Shown: in pieces, positions 13,890 to 33,166 of the stretch
How positions within the stretch are numbered: position 1 is the stretch's first letter
Layout: each line of letters opens with the position of its first letter
Assembly: GCA_023659985.1 (NCBI GenBank)
Contig: JAGXOH010000001.1
Location: 1 to 52,238 of the forward strand
Source: Candidatus Falkowbacteria bacterium LH_S3
GTDB lineage: Bacteria > Patescibacteriota > Patescibacteriia > Patescibacteriales > JAGXOH01
Direction: 5' to 3'
Length of the DNA: 52,238 nucleotides
Position numbers and translations under genes: made by a program
The notes under the pieces: model-generated
The model's input: only the letters and a program-made list of their open reading frames with translations
Told to the model about the DNA's origin: nothing
The model's database searches: none

Positions 13890-14157
13890 AAAAATTGTTC
13901 AATAAAAAACACCTCCACCTAAGAAACATGATACCGCCTAGAAGCCGGAGATTACTTCATTTAAAGGTACAACCTAAGCCAAGGAGGGGGATGCTCAGAT
14001 TTTCCCTACTTCTAGGCAGAATCATTTTCCCTATATAAAAGAGCTGTTTTAAAATAAAATCAGGTGCCTACGAGCCTTGTCATTTTATTAGCCTACACCT
14101 GTTTTTGTAGTAACTATAACACTATATCATATATTTATATTTTAGTCAATAGATGTG

Positions 14158-14332
14158 GATAATGCGCATACACATTTGGCGGTTTTAGCAAGATAGAAAT
14201 GTTATCTTGATATATGTGTGTAAATATGCCAAAAACAAACATATTGAGAAATATAATAGAACCATTCAGGAAGAATTTATTGACTGGAATAAAATATTAT
14301 TAGAATATCGTATAAATTTAATAAAAAATTAA
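14158..14332 (+). pseudogene. DDE transposase C-terminal remnant, frameshifted
   Basis: Fragments SIDVDNAHTHLAVLAR and (PKTN)..HIEKYNRTIQEEFIDWNKILLEY sit in different frames. HIEKYNRTIQEEF matches the catalytic-E region of rve-type transposases. Paralogous remnants lie at 17396-17632 and about 46600-46725. Confidence 0.6.
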
Positions 14333-14389
14333 TAAAAGGTTAGTTTGGTATAATACAAAACGTTACAAAAATTGGTGTCAAACAAAAAT

Positions 14390-14625
14390 TGATGTCAACT
14401 CTGAATTTTATGATATAATTTTTTCAAACCTGTCAATGAATTTGCTTTCTCCCAAATTGCCAAAAGCCCAAAGCTGAATAAATTTTCCTCGTGTCTAACA
14501 GGCATAAGGAAAATTGCTCAAAGCTGAAAGTTGTAAGAATGCTTTCGGCATTAAATTTACCTTTGGCAAATTATACTTTCAACGTTCAACGTTCAACCAT
14601 TAAACTCTGCTTAATTTAATGAGCT
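14390..14625. repeat. Family-B modular repeat, long copy
   Basis: Modules ATGTCAACTCTGAATTTTATG, TTTGCTTTCTCCCAAATTG, GCTGAAA heptamers, hairpins AATGCTTTCGGCATT and TTTACCTTTGGCAAAT, CAACGTT heptamers, AATTTAATGAGC. Confidence 0.8.
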
Positions 14626-14783
14626 GGACTAATACAAAAAATAGCGTTACAGAGGAAATCTGATATAATTTTAAAAAGCTATGGCAAATTTACAAATAAT
14701 GCCTAAAAATTAATCATATAGTCTAGAACCTTAATTTTTATCTCATTGGAAATGAAATTTCTGATGAGAAAAACATAAAAGCT

Positions 14784-15152
14784 ATGTTTGGAGAAAAATT
14801 TAAAAAAGAAACTTCTTCTGAAAAAATTAAGCCAAAAACTTCTGAAAAGGCTGAAGGAATGAAAGAAACAGAGGAATAAGTTACTAAAGAAAAACAGGAA
14901 ATTAGGCTTGAGAATATTAAAGAAGCCCCTTTTCTTGATCAAGAGGTTAAACTTTATTTAAAGACCAATTCTTTGTACAAAAAAGGCATGGAAGATACTA
15001 ATGAGGATGTCCGTCGAGGCACAGCCAGATCTTTAGGAGGATTAGCTTCTGTTGATTCTGAATCAGCAGCTTCTTTGTATGAAAAAGGCATGGAAGATAC
15101 TGATGGGAGTATCTGTCTAAACACAACCGAATCTTTAGGAGAGTTTAGCTAA
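14784..15152 (+). pseudogene. HEAT/PBS-lyase-type repeat protein fragment with in-frame TAA at 14877-14879
   Basis: The 123-codon frame reads MFGEKF...KETEE*VTKEK... It contains two repeats, LYKKGMEDTNEDVRRGTARSLGGL and LYEKGMEDTDGSICLNTTESLGEF. Confidence 0.6.
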
Positions 15153-15293
15153 AACAATAAAAATTTCTGAAAAAGAAGTCAATACTGAAGAAAATTTCAA
15201 AAGCCTAATAAAAAGCTATGGTTTATCTCCAAAAAAAGAAGATAAAGATTAGAGAAGTATCCAATTTTAGGAGAGAGTTGGAAAAGTTAAAAT

Positions 15294-17342
15294 TTAACTC
15301 TCGGCTTTAGCTTGTTGCATTCTGTTTTTTAATTCCGCAAACGGCTCATGACCTTCATGGTTCTTCGTGAGATTGAAAGCAGGATTTTGTGGATCAACTC
15401 CATTTTCTTTACATGCCTTACAAAAATATGTTTCAAAATCGAAATTTTCGTCTAAAACTGAAAGGCGAAAGTTTGTTGCTGTAATGTATACTTCTTGCAA
15501 AATTTTAGCACGAATATTCCCAAATGACTCACTCCCAAATGAATTATAGTGTAGTGACGGTTCTTCCCCAAATCCAACCCCTACCATATTTTCGCCTTTT
15601 TTGCTTTTCACCTCTGCGGTGAACTGAGGTGTTCCTGAATCATCAAAAGCTTTGGTGTTATTGTTATAAAGATTTTCTATAATTTGTAAAGCCTGTTCTT
15701 CTTCTTCCGAATTAAAGTAAATAACCATTTTATCAAGACGATTAAATTCCTTGGCACTTCCACGCAAAGGGATTTTCATTTGACTATTCAGACCCTCATT
15801 TTTAAACTCTTCCACTGCTTGTTCGAAAACCTGTCCTACATATTCCGGATTTAAATTTAAGTAAAATCTGCCAATTCCTGCTTGCTCGTATATTCCCTTG
15901 TTTGTACTACAAGAAAACCAATGTCCAGGAGCCTTCGGCATAAGGTTCTCTCCTTCTTTTTCCTTTTTTTCTAAATTGTCTTTTGCCAATTTTACTGACT
16001 TGAAATACTCTTTTTCTAATTTTTCGACCTCTGAATTGTTCTCCTGATATTTTAAGTTGTCAATATTTCTATTGTAAAAATCGCGATAAAAAAGTCCAAC
16101 CAAACCTTTCCCTTTATATAATTCATCTTCGATCTCCTGCTGATGGTTTTCAACATATTCGTAAAAGTCCTCTATCGCTTGTTTCTTTTCTGGAGAATCT
16201 TCTATGGTTTCTATCTGCTCTTCTCTTGACTGTTTGGATTCTTCAGATTGTAAAATTGTACCATTTGTAGAATTTAAATCTTCTATGGAAAGATTACCAT
16301 CTTTTAATTCTATTTTTAAATGATCGCCGGAAACAGTTTTCGGAAGCTTAAACCCTAATGGATCTTGACGACCGAGGATAAATGAATCGTTTTCTCTGAT
16401 ACTCTTATATCCAGTAGTGGGATTCTTTTGATCAAAAGTTGCAGGATCAACAAGTAGATAGTCGGCCTTCCATGACTTGTATTCCTGAACATTAATAATT
16501 TTCAAGTGTTTTTCCGAGAGATGGACATCAATCGGTATTTCTGTATCTTCAACTTCTTTTTTCTCTCCCTTAAGTTCAAAACGCTCTGGCTGAATTTCTT
16601 TTTCCGGTCCCCCTTGTCCCCTTATTTCATCTAGCGCTAAACCTGATTTTTCTTTAATTTGATTGATTGCGCTTGCAAATTCTGAACCTAATTGCGAATC
16701 AGGAAATACTTGGCGCCAAGTATCTAAAAATTCTTGTTGCATTTGTATAACTCTTCTTGCCTCGTCTGAAGTTAGTTCTTGATTAGCAGCAGCAAATACA
16801 TTTTTTTTTACATAATCTCGTTGAGATGAGGAAATACTCCTATGATCTATTTTGTTTGTAATGTCAGTTAAATTTTCAATAATGCGCGTTTTATTTTCAT
16901 CAGAGGATACTGCACCAAATTCTTCATAAACTGGGGCTAAGACATCCACAACGCCTTGAGCTGCCTCCCGCTTATATTGTAATTGTTTCTCTTGTACTGC
17001 TTGTTCATGTTGTTCTTTTGTCCGTCCTTCTTGATAAACAACTCCAATTTGCTCATCAATGATCTGCCCTAGATCTTTTTGAACATCCTCGATAGTCGGA
17101 TATTTTTTGCGCAATTCGGTCAAGGTGCCTTGTACATCTATTGAACGCAATTCTTCTTGATTTGGCAAATACCCCTTCTCCATCACAGTTAAAATTTTTA
17201 TACCTCTCTTGTTTGTTTTTATCTGTTCAACTGCTTCAGCAAAAGGATTGGACTCTTCAGGCGATTTTTGAACTTCCGATTTATTTTGTTCTGGAGATTC
17301 AGGCGATGGCGAAGTATTAAATTGTTCCATTTTTTCTTTCAT
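15294..17342 (-). CDS. FHA-domain protein with large uncharacterised N- and C-terminal domains (C-terminal domain possibly HopA1/LanKC-lyase-like)
   Basis: FHA signature SFILGRQDPLGFKLPKTVSGDHLKIELKDGNLSIEDLNSTNGTIL. The C-terminal ~270 aa carry GRFYLNLNPEY...MKIPLRG...RLDKMVIYF. Confidence 0.75.
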   Translation of the reverse strand: MKEKMEQFNTSPSPESPEQNKSEVQKSPEESNPFAEAVEQIKTNKRGIKILTVMEKGYLPNQEELRSIDVQGTLTELRKKYPTIEDVQKDLGQIIDEQIGVVYQEGRTKEQHEQAVQEKQLQYKREAAQGVVDVLAPVYEEFGAVSSDENKTRIIENLTDITNKIDHRSISSSQRDYVKKNVFAAANQELTSDEARRVIQMQQEFLDTWRQVFPDSQLGSEFASAINQIKEKSGLALDEIRGQGGPEKEIQPERFELKGEKKEVEDTEIPIDVHLSEKHLKIINVQEYKSWKADYLLVDPATFDQKNPTTGYKSIRENDSFILGRQDPLGFKLPKTVSGDHLKIELKDGNLSIEDLNSTNGTILQSEESKQSREEQIETIEDSPEKKQAIEDFYEYVENHQQEIEDELYKGKGLVGLFYRDFYNRNIDNLKYQENNSEVEKLEKEYFKSVKLAKDNLEKKEKEGENLMPKAPGHWFSCSTNKGIYEQAGIGRFYLNLNPEYVGQVFEQAVEEFKNEGLNSQMKIPLRGSAKEFNRLDKMVIYFNSEEEEQALQIIENLYNNNTKAFDDSGTPQFTAEVKSKKGENMVGVGFGEEPSLHYNSFGSESFGNIRAKILQEVYITATNFRLSVLDENFDFETYFCKACKENGVDPQNPAFNLTKNHEGHEPFAELKNRMQQAKAES

Positions 17343-17395
17343 ATTTATAATTTATCACAATTTTTATTTTTATTCAAAGATCCACATTAAATCAT

Positions 17396-17632
17396 CTAAA
17401 ATCTGACTAAAAGGATGCCTGTTAAATCATTAAAAGTCGATATTAAAAAGAAGATTTCGGTCAGATTTTCAAACACTAACTTAAACTCTATTTCAGTCAG
17501 ATAGTTAAATAATTTGACACGAACCCATCTTAAACGCTCATCTAAAGCGTTATTTGGTAGTTTTGTACACATATCTGCGATTCTCTCATATTTTTTCCAA
17601 AACCGACAAATGTGTATGCACATTACCTTCAA
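17396..17632 (-). pseudogene. DDE transposase C-terminal remnant
   Basis: Contains EGNVHTHLSVLEKI (shifted frame) and ..LPNNALDERLRWVRVKLFNYL.., paralogous to 14158-14332 and 46600-46725. The 17429-17520 segment is repeated at 33075-33166. Confidence 0.45.
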
Positions 17633-17755
17633 TTTTTACTATGTTGGTCTGGTATAATTTAAGTTAGCCACATGCACTGAATTTTTTTGACACAAAATGT
17701 GAGTGAACTTGTTCTTTAATAGGCATTCCTTGTTTTCGGGTATTTTATTGCTTCT

Positions 17756-17786
17756 AAACACGACATACTATAAGTATGTCGTGTTT
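17756..17786. promoter_or_regulatory. Perfect 14-bp-arm palindrome AAACACGACATACT-ATA-AGTATGTCGTGTTT upstream of dprA; carries the TACTATAAGTA core
   Basis: Read directly. The same core recurs at 33195-33209, and the variant TACTATAGTA/TACTATAGTT at 51560-51569 and 39895-39904. Confidence 0.5.
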
Positions 17787-17946
17787 AATTTTTGGGAAAA
17801 TGAGGCAACAAAGATGCCACTTCATCTGTTAAAGTTAGTTAATTGTCCTATATTTTTAAAGCTGTTATAATTAAAGCTGTTATAATTTTAATTACAAAAC
17901 CGAAAATGTTTATGCCTAAAACAAAAATAACCACCTAAGTTTTATT

Positions 17947-33026: not shown

Positions 33027-33074
33027 TAAAAAGCTTGATAATCTTTACAAGGTCTATCAGAATAAAAATAAAAC

Positions 33075-33166
33075 ATTAAAAGTCGATATTAAAAAAGAAG
33101 ATTTCGGTCAGATCTTCAAAACTAACTTAAACCCTATTTCAGTTAGATAGTTAAATTGCTTGACAC
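33075..33166. repeat. ~92-bp repeat shared with 17429-17520 (transposase-tail remnant ending in TTGACAC)
   Basis: ATTAAAAGTCGATATTAAAAA(A)GAAGATTTCGGTCAGAT(T/C)TTCAAA..ACTAACTTAAAC(T/C)CTATTTCAGT(C/T)AGATAGTTAAAT, aligned by eye at roughly 90 percent identity. Confidence 0.8.

Follow-up and report, generated by a model that had tools for sequence, protein, structure and literature searches.

The window analyzed here, 52,238 nucleotides of contig JAGXOH010000001.1 from Candidatus Falkowbacteria bacterium LH_S3 (GenBank assembly GCA_023659985.1), carries on its minus strand, at 15294..17342, a gene for a 682-residue protein in which a forkhead-associated (FHA) domain is joined to a C-terminal module of the HopA1 family. 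By comparison with characterized relatives, this module is predicted to be a lyase that removes phosphate from phosphoserine (pSer) or phosphothreonine (pThr) by beta-elimination. We favor, with moderate confidence, the explanation that the protein is a soluble modular enzyme whose FHA domain delivers phosphoproteins to a phospho-Ser/Thr lyase of the HopA1/LanY type, with substrates likelier to come from another organism's kinases or from unrecognized ones. Enzymes of this kind are known. The fusion with an FHA domain is without description in the literature that we searched: full-text queries pairing HopA1 with FHA or forkhead-associated, or phosphothreonine lyase with Patescibacteria, returned no paper.

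Translation confirmed that the open reading frame (ORF) is genuine and intact, with 2,049 nt including the stop codon and no internal stops. The FHA module that the initial annotation had placed in this frame scored above the Pfam cut-off (PF00498, residues 335–371, 26.1 bits against 20.7), and all four of the C-terminal motifs quoted there were found in the translation. In the 804-kb source assembly, which is AT-rich (~33% G+C) and 77.5% complete and comes from a group whose sampled genomes span 0.7–1.3 Mb (Patescibacteria), the protein provides both the sole match to PF17914, the HopA1 family (73.9 bits in the genome scan), and the sole match to FHA. Pfam found no domains beyond these two in the protein, and searches of the full sequence against NCBIfam and PDB sequences added only matches of FHA type (Mycobacterium tuberculosis FhaB/FipA and Rv0020c). 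A full-length AlphaFold2 model built on 24 orthologues had a mean predicted local distance difference test score (pLDDT) of 73 and a predicted TM-score (pTM) of 0.41.

The C-terminal module and its predicted catalytic residues

Several lines of evidence support the assignment of residues 380–657 to the HopA1 family and predict for them the fold shared by HopA1 and LxmY. Pfam matched residues 483–656 to PF17914 with 70.4 bits (cut-off 22.7, E = 2.2e-19). When the modelled module was compared with the PDB by Foldseek, LxmY, lyase of the lexapeptide dehydratase LxmKY (9DK1-3 chain B), ranked first (E = 5e-7) and HopA1 (4RSX/4RSW) came after it (E = 1e-6), the matches to these two spanning E = 5e-7 to 2e-6, with SpvC and OspF ranked last; the model is of high confidence over this module. 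VIA-align superposed model residues 380–656 on residues 13–366 of the LxmY chain (Z 16.6, 239 residues aligned) and residues 384–657 on HopA1 (Z 14.1–14.3), between 211 and 239 residues being aligned in the LxmY and HopA1 comparisons; lyase domains from class III LanKC proteins followed (Z 9–12.5, model residues 436–655), and then OspF/SpvC (Z 8.4, ~135 residues, model residues 449–654). Searching PDB sequences with a profile of 129 homologous domains likewise brought up LxmY (E = 2.6e-5) and HopA1 (E = 4.1e-4), where an earlier, narrower profile of 62 domains had matched LxmY no better than at E = 0.17. The likeness to HopA1 and to lyase domains found in class III–IV lanthipeptide synthetases, which the initial annotation had suggested from motif layout, is thus borne out by family, profile and fold comparison alike. 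Folds of HopA1, LxmY, LanKC lyases and OspF/SpvC were all matched; the OspF/SpvC profile itself, PF03536, had no match in the protein at E <=1. Published work has independently made a case for homology between PF17914 and PF03536.

Profile alignments placed R492, K523, R535, D537 and Y542 opposite LxmY R189, K221, R231, D233 and Y238, and the motif S606-F-G-x-x-R611 opposite SFGQHR of LxmY. As LxmY numbering is that of CaoY plus two, the LxmY alignment also leads to the CaoY counterparts, and R492, K523, R535 and Y542 are identical to CaoY R187, K219, R229 and Y236. In CaoY, elimination of phosphate is lost with the substitution R187A or K219A and lowered with R229Q; K219 is the counterpart of SpvC K136, and Y236 that of SpvC Y158 (PMC9486802). 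Active CaoY has an arginine (R187) in place of the OspF-type Lys104 and is missing His106 (PMC9486802). Reading the CaoY-SpvC alignment of that study together with our LxmY alignments, Lys104 becomes Arg492, His106 becomes Tyr494 and Lys136 becomes K523, so that only the Lys136 equivalent of the OspF/SpvC Lys104/His106/Lys136 triad is kept. The predicted catalytic residues do not vary among the 24 orthologues, and in the 129 distant domains, most of which are less than 50% identical to one another, their conservation is 90% or higher. Where the initial annotation had looked for equivalents of the catalytic lysine and histidine, the lysine base (K523) is present and the histidine is replaced by Tyr494; in the active LanY branch, CaoY likewise lacks the histidine (PMC9486802). 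Judged within the HopA1/LanY family, to which its sequence assigns the domain, both the similarity to known lyases and the residues expected of them were found.

The closest known systems are the LanY lyases CaoY and LxmY of class V lanthipeptide and thioamitide synthesis, which belong to the same Pfam family, include the best structural match and share the catalytic set (arginine for OspF Lys104, a lysine base, an arginine, a tyrosine and no histidine acid). The characterized examples covered here come from Streptomyces, whereas the FHA-HopA1 protein comes from Patescibacteria. In CaoKY and LxmKY the substrate is bound by a partner kinase; in contrast, no kinase of the APH type, precursor peptide or biosynthetic cluster was found at the contexts of the gene examined here, and what its lyase module is joined to is an FHA domain together with a helical N-terminal domain (N-domain). 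HopA1, a type III effector of Pseudomonas syringae and the founding member of PF17914, conserves the Gly-Arg, Lys, Asp..Tyr and R611 positions but has methionine at the position of R535 and no FHA domain. The N-terminus of HopA1 binds a chaperone and serves type III secretion, and a type III system is not to be expected in this small genome. OspF, SpvC and HopAI1 (PF03536) have the same core fold, with Lys136, Arg148 and Tyr158 equivalent to K523, R535 and Y542, and by analogy the same chemistry is proposed here; they differ in the Lys104-to-Arg and His106-to-Tyr replacements and in the FHA domain, which the 682-residue protein has. Substrate docking by OspF and SpvC uses the D-motif of mitogen-activated protein (MAP) kinases. 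Class III LanKC proteins match in fold, and in them too the lyase is joined covalently to a module that handles the substrate, but they combine lyase, kinase and cyclase in one protein and retain the Lys/His pair, whereas Pfam found no kinase or cyclase domain in our protein.

Predicted phosphothreonine reading and recurrent domain fusions

The FHA module found its best PDB sequence matches among FHA chains of M. tuberculosis, namely FhaA (Rv0020c) and FhaB/FipA (Rv0019c), with which it shares the GR...S..H...TN pocket. Its predicted pThr pocket comprises G324-R325, S338, H341 and T359-N360, and the columns G324, R325, S338, H341, N360, G361 and T362 show no variation across the 24 orthologues. 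In the organisms of FhaA and FhaB, FHA proteins function alongside Hanks kinases and a phosphatase of the PP2C type. In contrast to the M. tuberculosis pathways, the carriers of PF17914 that we searched had no Hanks kinase match, and those bearing an orthologue had no PP2C match.

About 27 full-length orthologues, 50–59% identical and all combining FHA with HopA1, were found in metagenomes and metagenome-assembled genomes. Carriers with names are assigned to Candidatus Moraniibacteriota or to the "Patescibacteria group", and one metagenome-assembled genome is labelled Saccharibacteria. The protein is sparsely distributed: a pattern-seeded scan of 185,579 species-representative genomes returned only four orthologues, and PF17914 occurred in 6 of 400 sampled Patescibacteria. 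Five orthologue contexts were all different, each a housekeeping neighborhood or a mobile or defence island, and the gene was solitary in every one. None of the five held a kinase, cyclase, precursor peptide or other gene for a ribosomally made peptide with post-translational modifications (RiPP); three contexts of more distant homologues were without kinase, cyclase, precursor or transporter; and no kinase was found in the window flanks of the FHA-HopA1 gene. In one island (L002, 12390-21580) the orthologue adjoins RhuM, RhuM+Fic and a type I restriction-modification system with DUF3800, and in another (L035, 1-4798) a serine recombinase, AbiEii and type I HsdR.

In the window itself the gene lies in an insertion. 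The order Lgt-LytR-Der-Pth-DprA-TopA is kept, by tblastn, in a genome of the same genus (G001) and in one of the same family (G004), where Pth and DprA are ~510 bp and ~295 bp apart; in the window they are separated by 4057 bp. The gap being longer by ~3.5–3.8 kb than in these kin genomes, it is confirmed at the level of sequence comparison that the FHA-HopA1 gene sits in an insertion of about that size, flanked to one side by LytR, Der and Pth and to the other by DprA and TopA. This agrees with the islet that the initial annotation had described. Its further description of the gene as accessory holds as well, since the gene lies in an insertion and a search of 60 relatives (1 same-genus, 7 same-family and 52 same-order genomes) did not find the protein. 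We take the gene to be an accessory singleton that moves horizontally in Patescibacteria.

Searching exhaustively with the last 283 residues of the protein retrieved 206 clusters of the wider lyase clade at the 50% identity level. Among representatives with N- or C-terminal extensions, Pfam identified FHA in 19 of 63 and PP2C in 3 of 63; a custom FHA profile found 21 FHA-bearing clusters outside the orthologue group, and counts of members without FHA are soft, as many of the representatives could be fragmentary. In a tree of 141 lyase domains, rows with FHA do not group together, with well-supported branches forcing at least three changes, and the PP2C fusions form one clade. These recurrent fusions to FHA and PP2C tie the lyase clade to Ser/Thr phospho-signalling rather than to the synthesis of peptide natural products. 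Individual architectures vary. Three metagenomic proteins (P0131, P0141 and P0146, the last at locus L027) have PP2C N-terminal to the lyase, that is, two phospho-erasers in one protein; P0042 shows the reverse order, with FHA after the lyase; and P0118 (1,951 aa) combines three HopA1-type stretches with an FHA domain.

The helical N-domain was modelled with high confidence when taken alone (residues 31–245, pLDDT 93.6, pTM 0.87). Foldseek gave it no relative in the PDB (best E 0.6), and the ESM Atlas had none at TM >=0.5; no Pfam family matched it, and protein-atlas feature scores of ~0.5 offered nothing usable. The domain recurs in other proteins of the same lyase clade, with and without FHA (P0031, P0028, P0115, P0091 and others), and because it is found there without FHA it is a clade-specific accessory module: a domain with no known fold relative in these two structure collections that travels with the lyase clade. 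Two proteins of 473–497 aa, P0025 and P0026 (the latter on a 90-kb contig), are close relatives (57% identity) that have the N-domain and FHA but not the HopA1 module; natural truncation, gene splitting or frameshifting may account for them.

Candidate function and competing explanations

Drawing on its homologues, we propose that the FHA pocket (R325, S338 and T359/N360) would dock on a pThr of a multiply phosphorylated protein and that the lyase module would then act on a nearby pSer or pThr. In this scheme K523, aided by Y542, would take the alpha-proton, R492 would stabilize the enolate, and R535, perhaps with R611, would hold the departing phosphate. The product would be dehydroalanine or dehydrobutyrine, which could not be phosphorylated again. 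The FHA domain, perhaps together with the helical N-domain, would supply the substrate recognition that the partner kinase provides in CaoKY and LxmKY.

As to where phosphorylated substrates might arise, the genome of the window had no Pkinase match above the cut-off, its single weak match being a kinase of the ABC1/UbiB type (contig 21). Neither Pkinase nor PP2C was matched in five orthologue-bearing genomes, including a closed genome of 1.19 Mb, and an FHA match was present in three of the five, the closed genome among them, each time the orthologue itself. Five further PF17914-bearing Patescibacteria also had no Pkinase match, giving 0 of 10 other carriers overall. Given that the carriers searched were without a Hanks kinase, and the orthologue carriers without PP2C or another FHA protein, we consider it more likely that the substrates are phosphorylated by another organism's kinases, such as those of an episymbiont's host cell, or by an unrecognized kinase; this is the weakest inference of our argument. 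Patescibacteria are widely regarded as episymbionts, and together with the lack of conventional kinases in carriers this makes host phosphoproteins an attractive target. That the protein is an episymbiont effector, which would enter or contact the host cell, find pThr on host Ser/Thr kinases or their substrates through its FHA domain and irreversibly destroy the phosphosites, is a possibility that we put forward only tentatively. If true, it would be a bacterium-against-bacterium counterpart of OspF and SpvC.

A number of observations weigh against an FHA-guided lyase acting on foreign phosphoproteins. With regard to delivery, no hydrophobic, signal-peptide-like stretch was seen by eye in the N-terminus, and VirB4 was found neither in the window's genome nor in the closed carrier genome, where the only relevant ATPases were those of type IV pili; with no evident signal peptide and no protein-injection system found, delivery to another cell is left unexplained. 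With regard to kinases, their absence from carriers is real but not statistically distinctive, because Pkinase matches above the Pfam cut-off turned up in just 19 of 101 genomes from the order. We accordingly tried and rejected the lack of kinases in carriers as a statistical argument, which a base rate of ~19% renders weak. With regard to the enzyme, the literature we covered documents no lyase activity for HopA1 itself, characterized LanY lyases were poorly soluble or aggregated on expression without their kinase partner, and the full-length model, with its pTM of 0.41, can be trusted for the single domains but not for how they are arranged. Finally, position 339, beside the phosphate-binding serine of the FHA pocket, is glycine in the 682-residue protein and arginine (18/23) or histidine (5/23) in orthologues, and at 28 positions that are otherwise conserved the protein has changes specific to its lineage, more than any other family member. 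We do not read G339 and these 28 substitutions as decay, because this copy is the most divergent member of the family and its frame is intact.

An alternative that dispenses with delivery altogether is that the protein is an endogenous regulator, erasing the cell's own Ser/Thr phosphorylation made by atypical kinases (ABC1/UbiB-like or unrecognized) and so doing the job of a PP2C phosphatase. The lack of a secretion signal or injection machine fits this reading, as does the ABC1 kinase of the window's genome, and the PP2C-lyase fusions suit a housekeeping eraser as well as they suit an effector. However, a gene that could not be found in 60 relatives, the same genus included, and that sits in an insertion is unlikely to have a core regulatory role; the orthologue carriers searched had no other FHA match and no PP2C or Hanks kinase match; and irreversible elimination would be a costly way to control one's own proteins. 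Overall we regard such a role as unlikely, if worth keeping in view.

The catalytic residues bear on whether the HopA1-like module is a pseudo-enzyme or phospho-dependent scaffold that binds phosphoproteins or another ligand without eliminating phosphate, as HopA1 itself may. The lack of documented activity for HopA1 proper and the replacement of the OspF-type histidine acid by Tyr494 speak for that reading. Conservation of the CaoY/LxmY catalytic set throughout the 129 divergent domains would, however, be hard to explain without catalysis, and CaoY is active with the same Arg-for-Lys, no-His arrangement (PMC9486802), which makes a non-catalytic module improbable in our judgment.

Two further explanations draw on genomic context. 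In the first, the protein would serve in defence or counter-defence as an accessory factor that reverses phosphorylation by phage-encoded or defence-system kinases, a role suggested by its patchy distribution and by the two orthologues that lie beside mobile or defence islands; but PADLOC gave no match, the best PHROGs match had an E of 0.087, and the other orthologue contexts are housekeeping with no conserved partner gene, so that we give this role little credence. The least probable is a LanY-like component of RiPP synthesis (class V lanthipeptide or thioamitide), in which a distant kinase of the APH type would phosphorylate a precursor and the FHA domain would hold the phosphorylated intermediate: LxmY is the closest solved structure and the window's genome does have one APH-family gene, yet that gene is on another contig adjoining a GH57 glycoside hydrolase gene, the closed carrier genome, with neither PP2C nor an APH (LanK-like) match, argues against a lanthipeptide role, none of the eight orthologue and distant-homologue contexts offered biosynthetic partners, and the fusion partners of the clade are PP2C and FHA rather than RiPP domains.

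To our knowledge, phospho-Ser/Thr lyases have so far been met in two settings, as type III effectors disabling the MAP kinases of eukaryotes and as kinase-coupled lanthipeptide dehydratases. Under the favored explanation, in which an FHA domain brings phosphoproteins to the lyase, this clade would be a third: a free-standing lyase with its own pThr reader, sometimes beside a PP2C phosphatase. If active, the protein could give a handle on how ultra-small episymbionts might interfere with host signalling and could provide protein chemistry with a new, self-targeting phospho-eraser.

Features of the protein and its islet

Coordinates of the protein's regions and of the islet features are collected below.

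Table 1. Regions of the 682-residue protein and features of the surrounding islet, in window coordinates
Feature	Coordinates	Strand	Basis or description
N-terminus, residues 1-30	17253..17342	-	Pro/Ser/Glu-rich, disordered, pLDDT <50
N-domain, residues 31-245	16608..17252	-	all-helical; domain model
FHA beta-sandwich, residues 254-366	16245..16583	-	Pfam, model strands, invariant columns
Linker, residues 367-385		-	low confidence in AlphaFold2 model
HopA1/LanY-type lyase module, residues 380-657 (predicted)	15372..16205	-	helical sub-domain and alpha/beta core; Pfam, VIA-align, Foldseek, profile
C-terminal tail after lyase module		-	low confidence in AlphaFold2 model
Codons of predicted catalytic set	15717..15869	-	R492 15867-15869, K523 15774-15776, R535 15738-15740, Y542 15717-15719
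Interval pth-dprA including inserted islet	13890..17946	.	tblastn synteny
Left copy of 27-nt inverted match	14160..14186	+	inside dispersed short repeat
Right copy of 27-nt inverted match	17599..17625	-	92.6% identity; inside dispersed short repeat
HEAT-like 123-codon frame in islet	14784..15152	+	one in-frame TAA at codon 32; two repeats; translation

The flanks of the islet (14100-14400 and 17343-17800) are copies of dispersed repeats of ~100–140 bp that occur on at least 10 contigs, C51, C26, C50, C84, C52, C74 and C11 among them, and a 27-nt inverted match brackets the islet. The initial annotation had taken these flanks for transposase remnants. Repeats are indeed there, but a transposase origin could not be confirmed through any transposase, insertion sequence (IS) or Pfam link: no full-length transposase ORF containing the flank repeats was found in the genome, and the ORF at 17396-17632 had no Pfam match. 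Descent of the flanks from the window's intact IS was considered and discarded, as the two have no similarity. On C51, the 3' tail of an ORF unrelated to the islet consists of one copy of the flank repeat.

The HEAT pseudogene said to flank the gene is partly upheld. The frame is present with its in-frame TAA and has an internal 80-bp repeat, but its Pfam HEAT score of 22.2 bits falls just below the cut-off of 23.5.

Two minor features lie near the right edge of the islet. Between the islet and dprA, at 17755-17787, a terminator scan picked out a perfect hairpin of 33 nt with a T-run after it. A 99-bp segment immediately upstream of the start of the FHA-HopA1 gene (17343-17441) is 91% identical to 33069-33166, which lies upstream of a LexA-methylase gene in the same window.

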